DNA of 64,000 nucleotides from Candidatus Fervidifonticultor sextus (GTDB lineage: Bacteria; Sysuimicrobiota; Sysuimicrobiia; Sysuimicrobiales; Humicultoraceae). A model generated the notes under the pieces. The model was not told where the DNA came from and did not search any database. It was given only the letters and a program-made list of their open reading frames with translations. The first letter of the stretch is position 1; every line of letters starts with the position of its first letter. Below are positions 31,932 through 35,090 of the stretch, piece after piece. The stretch lies in contig JAVKHQ010000003.1 in the NCBI GenBank assembly GCA_031459875.1, positions 32,001-96,000 of the forward strand. The letters run 5' to 3'. The position numbers and the translations under genes were made by a program.

Positions 31932-31960
31932 TTGACGCTCCATGGGGACGGTGCTACGAT
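31932..31960 (+). promoter_or_regulatory. Sigma70 promoter heading the Rieske-nuoBDIC unit
   Basis: TTGACG-17 bp-TACGAT with extended TG. Confidence 0.65.
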
Positions 31961-31989
31961 CAACAGGAGCGTATCCGCAGGGGTGACGG

Positions 31990-32298
31990 GTGGCGCGCAT
32001 CAAGGTTGCCAACGCTTCTGACCTGCCTGAGGGGACTGCCACAGCCGTCACGGTGAACGGCATGACCGTGGCGCTGTTCCACCGTCCCGAAGGCTGGTTC
32101 GCCATCGAGGGCACGTGCACGCACCGCGGGGGGCCGCTGGCCGAGGGTGATGTCGAAGGCTTCGTGGTCACCTGCCCCTGGCATGGCGGCCAGTTCGACG
32201 TCCGCACCGGAAACCTGGTGAGCCCACCGCCGGCGCGTCCGGTGCGGGCGTTTCGGGTCGTGGTGGAGGGCGAGGACGTCTTCCTGGAGACGTCGTAA
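31990..32298 (+). CDS. Rieske-type [2Fe-2S] ferredoxin
   Basis: CTHRGGPL...CPWHG; no signal or TM segment. Confidence 0.9.
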
Positions 32299-32326
32299 TC
32301 TCCTCAAGGATCACCCGGAGACCGAC

Positions 32327-32884
32327 ATGAGTTCACAGACGCCGCCTCCGATGCCCTCGCGCCTCGCGCCCGTCGAGCGCGCGGTGGAGATCCTCGACGC
32401 GCTGCCCGGCGGGGGGGTCATCCTCAGCAAGGTGGAGTACCTGCTCAACTGGAGCCGCGCGGCCAGCCTCTGGCCGCTCACCTTCGGCCTGGCGTGCTGC
32501 GCCATCGAGATGATGGCCGCGTTCGCCGGGCGGTTCGACCTGGACCGCATGGGGGTGATCCCCCGGGCCACCCCGCGGCAGGCCGACCTGATGATCGTAG
32601 CGGGCCGCTGCACCATCAAGATGGCCCCCATCGTCCGGCGACTGTGGGAGCAGATGCCCGAGCCCAAGTATGTCCTCTCCATGGGCTCGTGCGCCACCTG
32701 CGGAGGACCCTTCTACTACGACAACTACTCGATCCTCAAGGGCATCGACCAGGTCGTGCCCGTGGACGTCTATGTGCCCGGCTGTCCTCCCCGGCCCGAG
32801 GCCTTGATCGAGGGCATTCTCAAGCTTCAGGAGAAGATCAAGGCCGAGCCGTTCCTGCGGCGGAGCCTGGCGGCCAGGGCATGA
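32327..32884 (+). CDS. nuoB: Complex I subunit B (N2 cluster)
   Basis: [33 protein letters not shown]. Confidence 0.95.
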
Positions 32885-32905
32885 CCCCATCCAGGAGCCG
32901 GCGGC

Positions 32906-34009
32906 GTGGCGCTTCGCACCGAAGAACTGATGCTCAACATGGGGCCGCAGCACCCCAGCACCCACGGGGTGCTGCGCCTGGTCGTGACCCTGGACGGCGA
33001 GAACATTGTGGATGTCGCCCCGGACATCGGCTATCTCCACTCGTCGGTCGAGAAGATGATGGAGTACCGCACCTACCTCCAGAACGTCGCCCTCACCGAC
33101 CGGGGGATGGATTACCTGACCGCGCTCGCCAACGAAGAGGCCTACCTGCTGGCCGTGGAGCGTCTGGGCGGCATCCCGGTGCCCCCGCGGGCCCGGTGGC
33201 TGCGGACCATCATGCTGGAGTTCCAGCGCCTGTCCAGCCACTTGGTCTGGCTGGGCACCTGGGGGATCGACCTGGGCGCGACCACCGTCTTCCTCTACTG
33301 CTTCCGCGAGCGTGAGCGCATCCTCGACCTGTTCGAGCAGGTCACCGGCGGGCGACTGCACCACGTCTACTTCCGGCCGGGCGGAGTCTACGAGGACCTG
33401 CCCGCGGGCTGGACCGACCGGGCCCTGGAGTTCTGCGACGAGTTCCTGGATCGCCTGGGGGAGTACCACGACCTGCTGACCGGCAACCCCATCTTCCTGG
33501 CGCGCACGCAGGGGGTCGGGGTCCTGCCCCGCGAGGCGGCCATCAACATGGGCGCCTGCGGCCCGGTGGCGCGGGCCTCGGGGGTGAACTTCGACGTGCG
33601 TAAGGCCTTCCCGTACGAGGCCTACGGTGAGGTCGAGTTCGACATCCCGGTGCAGACCGCCGGCGACTGCTTCGCCCGCTACCTGGTGCGCATGGAGGAG
33701 ATGCGCCAGAGCGTGCGGATCATCCGGCAGGCGATCGGGAACCTCCCGCCGGGCGAGATCCGCAGCAAGGTGCAGGTGACGGTGAGGCTGCCCAGGGGCG
33801 AGGTCTACGCCCGCACCGAGTCGCCCCGGGGCGACCTGGGCGTCTACCTGATCAGCGAGGGGGAGGAGGTGCCCTACCGGGTGAAGATCCGGGCGCCGTC
33901 GTTCTCCAACCTCTACGCGCTCGCCGAGATGATGCGCGGCTGGAAGGTGGCCGACGTCATCGCGATCTTGGGCAGCGTGGACATCGTGCTGTCGGACGTG
34001 GACCGGTAG
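32906..34009 (+). CDS. nuoD: Complex I subunit D (quinone-binding)
   Basis: NMGPQHPSTHGVLR, ESPRG, KIRAPSF, C-terminal DVDR; no NiFe CxxC motifs. Confidence 0.95.
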   Translation: MALRTEELMLNMGPQHPSTHGVLRLVVTLDGENIVDVAPDIGYLHSSVEKMMEYRTYLQNVALTDRGMDYLTALANEEAYLLAVERLGGIPVPPRARWLRTIMLEFQRLSSHLVWLGTWGIDLGATTVFLYCFRERERILDLFEQVTGGRLHHVYFRPGGVYEDLPAGWTDRALEFCDEFLDRLGEYHDLLTGNPIFLARTQGVGVLPREAAINMGACGPVARASGVNFDVRKAFPYEAYGEVEFDIPVQTAGDCFARYLVRMEEMRQSVRIIRQAIGNLPPGEIRSKVQVTVRLPRGEVYARTESPRGDLGVYLISEGEEVPYRVKIRAPSFSNLYALAEMMRGWKVADVIAILGSVDIVLSDVDR

Positions 34010-34017
34010 GTTCCAAT

Positions 34018-34497
34018 ATGACGCATCTCGCCACCCGCGCGTGGGACGCCCTCACCGGCCTGTACCTGGGCCTGCGGGTGACGTGGGGGGCGCTGGTCCG
34101 GCCCAAGAACACCGTCAAGTACCCGGTGGAGAAGGTGAACGTCTCACCGCGCTGGCACGGCCTGCTGGCGCTGCCCATCGACCCCGAGACCGGCAGCGAC
34201 CGGTGCATCATCTGTTTCCAGTGCGAGCGTGTCTGCCCCGACCGGTGCATCCACATCGAAGCCGCGGGCAAGGGCAAGGATCGCGTGCTCACCCGGTTCG
34301 ACATCGAGATGGACAAGTGCTGCTACTGCGGCCTGTGCGTCGAGGTCTGCCCGACCGAGGCGATCGTCTTCGTCCCCCACTACGAGGCCAGCACCTTCAA
34401 CCGCGCGAACCTGCTCTATGACCTGAACGACCTGCGCCGCGCCGCCCCCAAGGAGCCGATCGCGCACGGCGTCATCCGGTTGCGGGGATCGCGATGA
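34018..34497 (+). CDS. nuoI: Complex I subunit I (2x[4Fe-4S])
   Basis: TVKYP, CIICFQCERVCP, CCYCGLCVEVCP. Confidence 0.92.
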   Translation: MTHLATRAWDALTGLYLGLRVTWGALVRPKNTVKYPVEKVNVSPRWHGLLALPIDPETGSDRCIICFQCERVCPDRCIHIEAAGKGKDRVLTRFDIEMDKCCYCGLCVEVCPTEAIVFVPHYEASTFNRANLLYDLNDLRRAAPKEPIAHGVIRLRGSR

Positions 34498-35090
34498 GCT
34501 GGGAGCTTGTCGAGCGCCTACGCGAGCGGTTTCCGGAGATCGAGCCGTTCCCGCACGAGGCGGGCCACGCAGAACCCCCCGGTGAGCCCGCCGCGCCGGC
34601 CGGCCGGCCCGCGCGCCACGAGGCCAGGGCGTACGCCTACCACGTCCCGGGCGCGTTCGTGCCCGCCGACCGCCTGCTGGCCGTCTGCCGGGTCCTGCGC
34701 GACGACCCCCCGTTCCACCTGGACTACTGCTCGTTCGTCAGCGCCGTCGACCGGCCGGATCAGAGGATTTTCGAGGTGGTCTACCACCTGTTCTCCATGG
34801 CCGAACGCCACGAGATGCTGGTGAAGGTGCGGGTCCCGCGGGAGGCGCCGCGGGTGCCCAGCGTGGTGGACATCTGGCGCGGCGCCAACTGGCACGAGCG
34901 CGAGACCTACGACCTGTTCGGCATCGTCTTCGAAGGCCATCCGGACCTGCGCCGCATCATGCTGACCGAGGACTGGGTCGGCCACCCGCTGCGCAAAGAC
35001 TACGTGTACGAGGAACCCCGCTGGCTGGTGGACCTGGCGGCCCAGCGGCAGCAGGAGATCGAAGGCCTGGGGCTGGGCGAGCGGGCCTGA
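34494..35090 (+). CDS. nuoC: Complex I subunit C
   Basis: [37 protein letters not shown]. Confidence 0.93.
   Translation: [198 protein letters not shown]

Follow-up and report, generated by a model that had tools for sequence, protein, structure and literature searches.

The question raised by this locus is which enzyme is formed by a complex I quinone module that is encoded apart from the rest of complex I. In the 64,000-nucleotide stretch of contig JAVKHQ010000003.1 analyzed in the present study (hereafter the window; Candidatus Fervidifonticultor sextus, assembly GCA_031459875.1), positions 31932-35090 hold a promoter-like site, a gene for a Rieske ferredoxin, and nuoB, nuoD, nuoI, and nuoC, in this order. 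A preliminary description regarded this operon either as a stand-alone, non-pumping oxidoreductase fed by the Rieske protein or as a swappable quinone module for a membrane arm whose genes lie elsewhere. Its account of the operon itself was confirmed by open reading frames, profiles, and tblastn: exactly the four quinone-module subunits stand behind a promoter of their own, their products pass the cut-offs of the NCBIfam families given in Table 1, and a tblastn search of the window with the full complement of 25 Nuo proteins from this genome found no Nuo gene other than B, C, D, and I.

Considering the nuo genes of the whole genome (G000; 3.05 Mb, 67 contigs, 96% complete), B-D-I-C and the membrane subunits encoded on another contig, C66, very probably constitute a second, 11-subunit complex I that has no NADH module and is predicted to be a proton-pumping ferredoxin:menaquinone oxidoreductase. 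The genome contains two copies each of nuoB, nuoC, nuoD, nuoI, and nuoH. One set belongs to a complete nuoA-N operon on contig C67, and the other is divided between the window and a membrane-only operon, nuoA-H-J-K-L-M-N, which lies at C66:12557-19689, lacks B, C, D, and I, and is directly upstream of V/A-type ATPase genes (G000:C66:12557-28377, locus L012). Together, B-D-I-C and A-H-J-K-L-M-N make up exactly the 11-subunit set, apart from the 14-subunit set, and neither of the two operons contains nuoE, nuoF, or nuoG. The one full NuoF-family match in the genome lies within the canonical C67 operon, while C49 carries what looks like an enzyme of the formate dehydrogenase type: a NuoF-like piece, cut by the contig end, with a NuoG-like protein as well as a molybdopterin oxidoreductase behind it. 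The split-set NuoD is about 49% identical to the canonical NuoD of the same genome. Of the possibilities raised in the preliminary description, the best reading is that the module docks on a separately encoded membrane arm, namely the product of this orphan operon on C66.

Close relatives of this genome are placed in CSP1-3/Candidatus Sysuimicrobiota by named records, and the distribution of both halves was examined in 60 genomes of the phylum with a completeness of 90% or more. Of these, 59 have the window-type nuoD and all 60 the orphan-type nuoH, with one copy each; in the 59 genomes the two genes are never adjacent, being located on other contigs or far apart (1.73 Mb on the single large contig of G012). 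A set of 41 genomes that includes poorer assemblies had this nuoD in 37 and this nuoH in 40. Since the genome with no nuoH match (G002) has a nuoM orthologue near a contig start, its gap is likely due to assembly loss, and what looks like a break in the G006 nuoM is a stretch of Ns in that assembly. The order B-D-I-C was observed in 29 of 30 loci, the remaining one being cut after nuoI, and in eight of eight named loci that possibly overlap with these 30. On the membrane side, A-H-J is contiguous without B, C, D, or I in 30/30 loci, and the full membrane set is followed by V-ATPase subunit I in all eight long loci from other genomes. Outside the phylum, the B-D-I-C order was found in none of 72 genome loci and none of 13 metagenome loci.

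Regarding the relationship between the two halves, NuoD and NuoH trees were based on the 37 rows that hold both proteins. Split-set NuoD and NuoH each group with the same unsplit operons lacking nuoEFG (L053, L080, and L086), with supports of 95 and 99, respectively, in the Shimodaira-Hasegawa-like approximate likelihood ratio test (SH-aLRT); support was 96/97 in a careful NuoH tree that included L093 and 95 in a quick mixture-model tree of NuoD. The canonical copies are located elsewhere, nearest to Chloroflexota 14-subunit operons in most trees. In NDH-1, the parts that join the arms are the loop between transmembrane helices (TMH) 1 and 2 of NdhC, the TMH5-6 loop of NdhA, and the N-terminal helix of NdhI, and the homologues of NuoD, NuoB, and NuoH together form the quinone chamber (PMC6992706). 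The counterparts of these joining parts, among them the NuoH/NuoA contacts that the preliminary description had proposed to check, are conserved in the split set: P32, K39, and the YESG loop of NuoA are invariant in 34 sequences, and the acidic TMH5-6 loop of NuoH is strongly conserved. An N-terminal amphipathic helix is present in 37/37 NuoI sequences, with a mean moment of 0.43 versus 0.47 for three canonical NuoI. These retained surfaces suggest that the soluble and membrane halves likely assemble into one complex.

The residues expected of a quinone module are also present, as had been described. NuoB has the N2 ligands C57-C58, C122, and C153, including the tandem cysteines; NuoI contains the motif CxxCxxCxxxCP twice; and NuoD keeps the quinone-site residues H16, H20, Y70, and D122. 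When aligned to cyanobacterial NdhH and Thermus Nqo4, the C-terminus of NuoD (IVLSDVDR) has no NiFe-binding cysteines, which ruled out a group 4 [NiFe] hydrogenase; a canonical 14-subunit complex I was ruled out by the lack of both an own NuoEFG and a long-form NuoD. Length classes of NuoD were counted from the alignment over all 114 rows, 3 of which remained unclassed. A segment of 25 residues, which we take to be a contact with NuoG, is present in 37/37 outside loci with nuoE or nuoG and in 3/3 canonical copies, and is absent from 40/40 split-type copies and 27/31 outside loci without nuoEFG. Its short replacement is basic, with a charge of at least +1 in 36/40 split-type copies, and the hairpin between the two motifs of NuoI has a net charge of at least +2 in 32 of 37 split-type sequences, whereas none of the 21 outside hairpins from loci containing nuoE or nuoG reaches this value. 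In NDH-1, the matching NdhI hairpin and NdhH fragment form the pocket to which ferredoxin binds (PMC6992706).

In the enzyme proposed here, the products of nuoB-D-I-C would form the quinone module and dock on the seven C66 membrane subunits; electrons would enter at the basic NuoI hairpin and the NuoD segment and pass through N6a, N6b, and N2 to the quinone, with menaquinone as the putative acceptor and proton pumping as the coupled reaction. The usual donor may be an acidic, FdxA-like ferredoxin that receives its electrons from 2-oxoacid:ferredoxin oxidoreductases, and NADH would be handled by the complete nuoA-N operon. Because a match to the POR_N family was found in 60/60 genomes and an FdxA-like ferredoxin in 59/60 (isoelectric point [pI] of 4.3 in this genome), reduced ferredoxin is plausibly available across the phylum. 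A menB match above the cut-off was found in this genome, and the futalosine-pathway family PF02621 was not. The FdxA-like ferredoxin itself (C45:9807-10175, L216) carries an insertion of approximately 40 residues between its cluster motifs, and full-length matches to it were obtained only in families f1 and f2.

Several observations weigh against this assignment. The NuoD length rule has exceptions in four Aquificaceae loci, which have a long NuoD and no nuoEFG, and the charge signal lacks generality, as only 8 of 21 NuoI hairpins from outside loci without nuoEFG reach +2. The FdxA-like matches in families f4, f5, and f7 extend over no more than the C-terminal half of the query. G021 (92% complete) and the less complete G023, G026, and G029 keep the membrane arm and have no matching nuoB or nuoD, which may represent assembly loss or a real absence. 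The mixture-model support for NuoD comes from a quick tree, and the outgroup of the trees was taken from an identity-biased scan. Marine Streptomyces have been reported to carry the same membrane-only genes, nuoAHJKLMN, beside a complete operon (PMC8622039), so the presence of an arm of this kind does not by itself indicate a partner.

Enzymes of eleven subunits are widespread, their genes are sometimes located in two or three clusters, and a survey of this class did not identify a fixed partner (Moparthi and Hagerhall, 2011; PMC3144371). The split set resembles them in its identical set of eleven subunits, in the absence of NuoEFG and of NiFe ligands, in a retained quinone site, and in a donor that is not encoded as a fixed partner. 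An unsplit nuoABCDHIJKLMN cluster has been reported for Desulfitobacterium hafniense, for which ferredoxin from pyruvate:ferredoxin oxidoreductase was proposed as the donor (PMC11238625), and another unsplit 11-subunit cluster is described in PMC12142623. The split set differs from this class in its clean cut into a soluble B-D-I-C operon and a membrane operon before V/A-type ATPase genes, in the coexisting 14-subunit operon, and, in some genomes, in the Rieske gene that heads the soluble operon. Two complex I isozymes in one genome and non-clustered genes have both been documented (PMC4453560, PMC4758237, PMC12361115).

Among solved structures, cyanobacterial NDH-1L (PDB 6hum family) is the tied best match of NuoD. 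This enzyme likewise has no NADH module, carries a basic NuoI hairpin and a NuoD fragment at its ferredoxin site (PMC6992706), and is encoded in several groups of genes (PMC4758237), whereas its extra subunits NdhL-V (not searched for here), plastoquinone, and plant-type ferredoxin set it apart. Canonical complex I (Thermus Nqo, PDB 2fug, and the C67 operon) shares the N2 ligands, the N6a and N6b motifs, and the quinone-site residues; unlike it, the split set has no NuoEFG, a short NuoD, and another position in the trees. Other divisions of such gene sets were also seen. Metagenome loci L224 and L226 carry nuoA-B-C-D with nuoH missing from the 8 kb downstream, so that a related set lacking nuoEFG is divided differently there, and outside operons L066, L070, L077, L083, and L084 are arranged as A-C-D-H-J-K-L-M-N without a match to nuoB or nuoI in the locus, which is a further way of moving iron-sulfur (Fe-S) subunits out of the operon. 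A literature search, conducted mostly outside subscription papers, found no publication that deals with an operon of the order B-D-I-C or with complex I having a Rieske partner, and "nuo" does not occur in the main text of the paper on the phylum (PMC11604079), the supplements of which may list the genes.

The preliminary description had the enzyme fed by the Rieske protein and proposed to test whether the linkage of the five genes is conserved. The B-D-I-C part of this synteny is conserved, whereas the Rieske part is not: the gene immediately precedes nuoB in 10 of 29 informative loci and, in a phylum search at E <= 1e-24 that could have missed a distant adjacent copy, in 9 of 59 well-assembled genomes (10 if G016, an assembly with two copies, is counted), all of family f1. 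It is missing from this place in four of the six genomes of the window's own genus. The protein passes PF00355, and its best NCBIfam scores, all below the curated cut-offs, are to dioxygenase ferredoxins of the HcaC, AndAb, and BphF type, with which it shares solubility, a length of approximately 100 amino acids, and the CxH...CxxH ligands; it differs from them in that its gene precedes nuoB instead of lying beside an oxygenase. The protein is probably a passenger ferredoxin for Rieske oxygenases, and its gene would be an optional passenger under the promoter it shares with nuoB-D-I-C. This genome has three alpha/beta pairs of ring-hydroxylating oxygenases (C19:24670, C66:41869, and C66:47122), and no ferredoxin or reductase was seen by eye beside any of them.

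We consider it unlikely that, in one sub-lineage, the co-transcribed Rieske protein is instead a true redox partner of the 11-subunit complex, most plausibly its acceptor. Its gene does sit between a conserved promoter and nuoB, a promoter-like site being present at 8 of 10 Rieske-headed loci (at least 8/12 matches) and, among 26 loci without the Rieske gene, upstream of nuoB in 15 (at least 9/12 matches). The adjacent copies form one clade in a tree (support 81), a different Rieske copy is located at the same place in G035 (89% complete, f4), and the protein is acidic. Alpha subunits of ring-hydroxylating oxygenases are present in 9/9 genomes with the adjacent gene versus 14 of the other 51, a contrast to be taken as a lead only, since kin are not independent. 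Against a partnership, the gene is absent from this position in 49 or 50 of the 59 genomes, the 14 genomes just mentioned have oxygenases without it, and G016 has the adjacent copy without an oxygenase. G001 and G004 retain before nuoB a short stretch resembling the last bases of the Rieske gene, which suggests secondary loss, and their single Rieske copy at E <= 1e-8 is the suf-linked one.

A role as the forward donor is also difficult to reconcile with redox potentials. Menaquinone is at about -74 mV, and, by our own estimate, the translocation of four protons per two electrons requires roughly 300 mV. The potentials of dioxygenase-type Rieske ferredoxins, -112 to -173 mV (PMC4814904), are less than about 100 mV from menaquinone, which makes such a protein a weak donor for pumping. 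The complex might run in reverse, with the proton-motive force driving electrons from menaquinol to the Rieske protein and on to Rieske oxygenases that have no ferredoxin of their own or to Fe-S assembly; we regard this as improbable, and it is similarly doubtful that the gene was recruited into the operon in one Sysuimicrobiota branch because its product docks on the 11-subunit complex I.

It is very unlikely that B-D-I-C serves as an exchangeable quinone module on the canonical arm or borrows the canonical NuoEFG to act as a second NADH-oxidizing enzyme. A NuoF-family match is single in 32/60 genomes, in which NADH input would need to be shared, and Spero et al. reported one genome in which nuoEFG is single and the remaining nuo genes are duplicated (PMC4453560). 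However, the cognate arm is present in every genome and shares its ancestry with the soluble half in the NuoD and NuoH trees, which argues against the swappable module of the preliminary description; the NuoD of the split set lacks the segment that accompanies nuoE or nuoG elsewhere, and the mixing of subunits between clades is rare according to Spero et al. (PMC4453560). A second NADH module dedicated to the split enzyme was rejected on the same counts, NuoF-family matches being one in the 32 genomes above, none in 2, and at least two in 26, with extra copies counted without classification. It is extremely unlikely that B-D-I-C works alone as a soluble, non-pumping oxidoreductase beside an orphan membrane operon acting separately as an ion transporter, since, for all that the halves are never adjacent, have separate promoters, show a gene order confined to the phylum among the loci compared, and recall the membrane-only operons of Streptomyces (PMC8622039), they occur one to one (59/60 genomes), share their ancestry, and both keep the arm-joining surfaces, and the quinone chamber of NDH-1 is a joint structure (PMC6992706).

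The remaining features of the window concern the transcription and surroundings of the split enzyme's soluble operon (Table 1). Between positions 31300 and 36000 (4.7 kb), two promoter-like sites were found versus 0.0 +/- 0.2 in shuffled sequences, the second being on the minus strand within nuoD. No promoter motif shared with B-D-I-C was found within 200 bases before the membrane operon of this genome, and many relatives have a TTGACA-type site before theirs. No terminator-like site was found after nuoC, and the 3' end of the transcript is thus undefined; none lies between nuoC and the molybdoenzyme gene that starts 68 bases further on and that follows nuoC in many relatives as well.

Table 1. 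Positions of the operon and of neighboring features in the window
Feature	Position	Strand	Family	Remarks
Promoter-like site, sigma-70 type	31932..31960	+		TTGACG-17-TACGAT; heads the operon
Rieske [2Fe-2S] ferredoxin gene	31990..32298	+		Soluble, dioxygenase-ferredoxin type; 102 amino acids, pI 5.2; lineage-restricted operon member
nuoB	32327..32884	+	NCBIfam TIGR01957	Cluster N2 subunit with tandem cysteines
nuoD	32906..34009	+	NCBIfam TIGR01962	Short form, 367 amino acids
nuoI	34018..34497	+	NCBIfam TIGR01971	Two [4Fe-4S] motifs with a basic hairpin between them; amphipathic helix at the N-terminus
nuoC	34494..35090	+	NCBIfam TIGR01961	4-base overlap with the nuoI stop
Molybdoenzyme gene	35159..36760			Sulfite-oxidase family, membrane-anchored
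sufC-sufB-sufD-Rieske-sufS-sufU	20112..25932	+		suf cluster; context only
Rieske ferredoxin gene of the suf cluster	23796..24140			Paralogue of the nuoB-adjacent Rieske, 43% identical

In families f1, f2, f4, and f7, B-D-I-C is mostly located between the suf cluster and lipoamide dehydrogenase/E1 genes, and the suf cluster is directly upstream of it in several families; in f5, it follows other genes (by eye, quinone methyltransferase and murA). Since nuoB begins less than 300 bases after sufU in several f4 loci, the suf genes for Fe-S assembly and the Fe-S-rich B-D-I-C module may be co-transcribed there. At L165 (G017) and L166 (G016), a Rieske copy approximately 60% identical to that of the window follows a divergent sufB-like gene in a second suf-like cluster.

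The preliminary description had proposed that a complementary membrane arm and an unconserved Rieske linkage would reduce the operon to part of a split complex I, and both were found, whereas the further sign it named, that these be the only nuoBCDI genes of the genome, does not apply, a second set lying beside the complete operon. With its clean cut, B-D-I-C order, and retention across the phylum, the split set has an unusual layout for a known kind of enzyme, which implies no new machine; a supposed new soluble enzyme is thereby removed. The division into a soluble and a membrane operon also means that annotation based on single windows misreads both halves. For 11-subunit enzymes, two candidate partners are offered from this uncultured organism, an FdxA-like ferredoxin and, by a weak link, the Rieske protein; if reverse flow to the latter were true, it would constitute a Rieske-coupled complex I and give this class a named partner. 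Two complexes I, one serving NADH and the other likely ferredoxin, are encoded in nearly all of the Sysuimicrobiota genomes that were examined.

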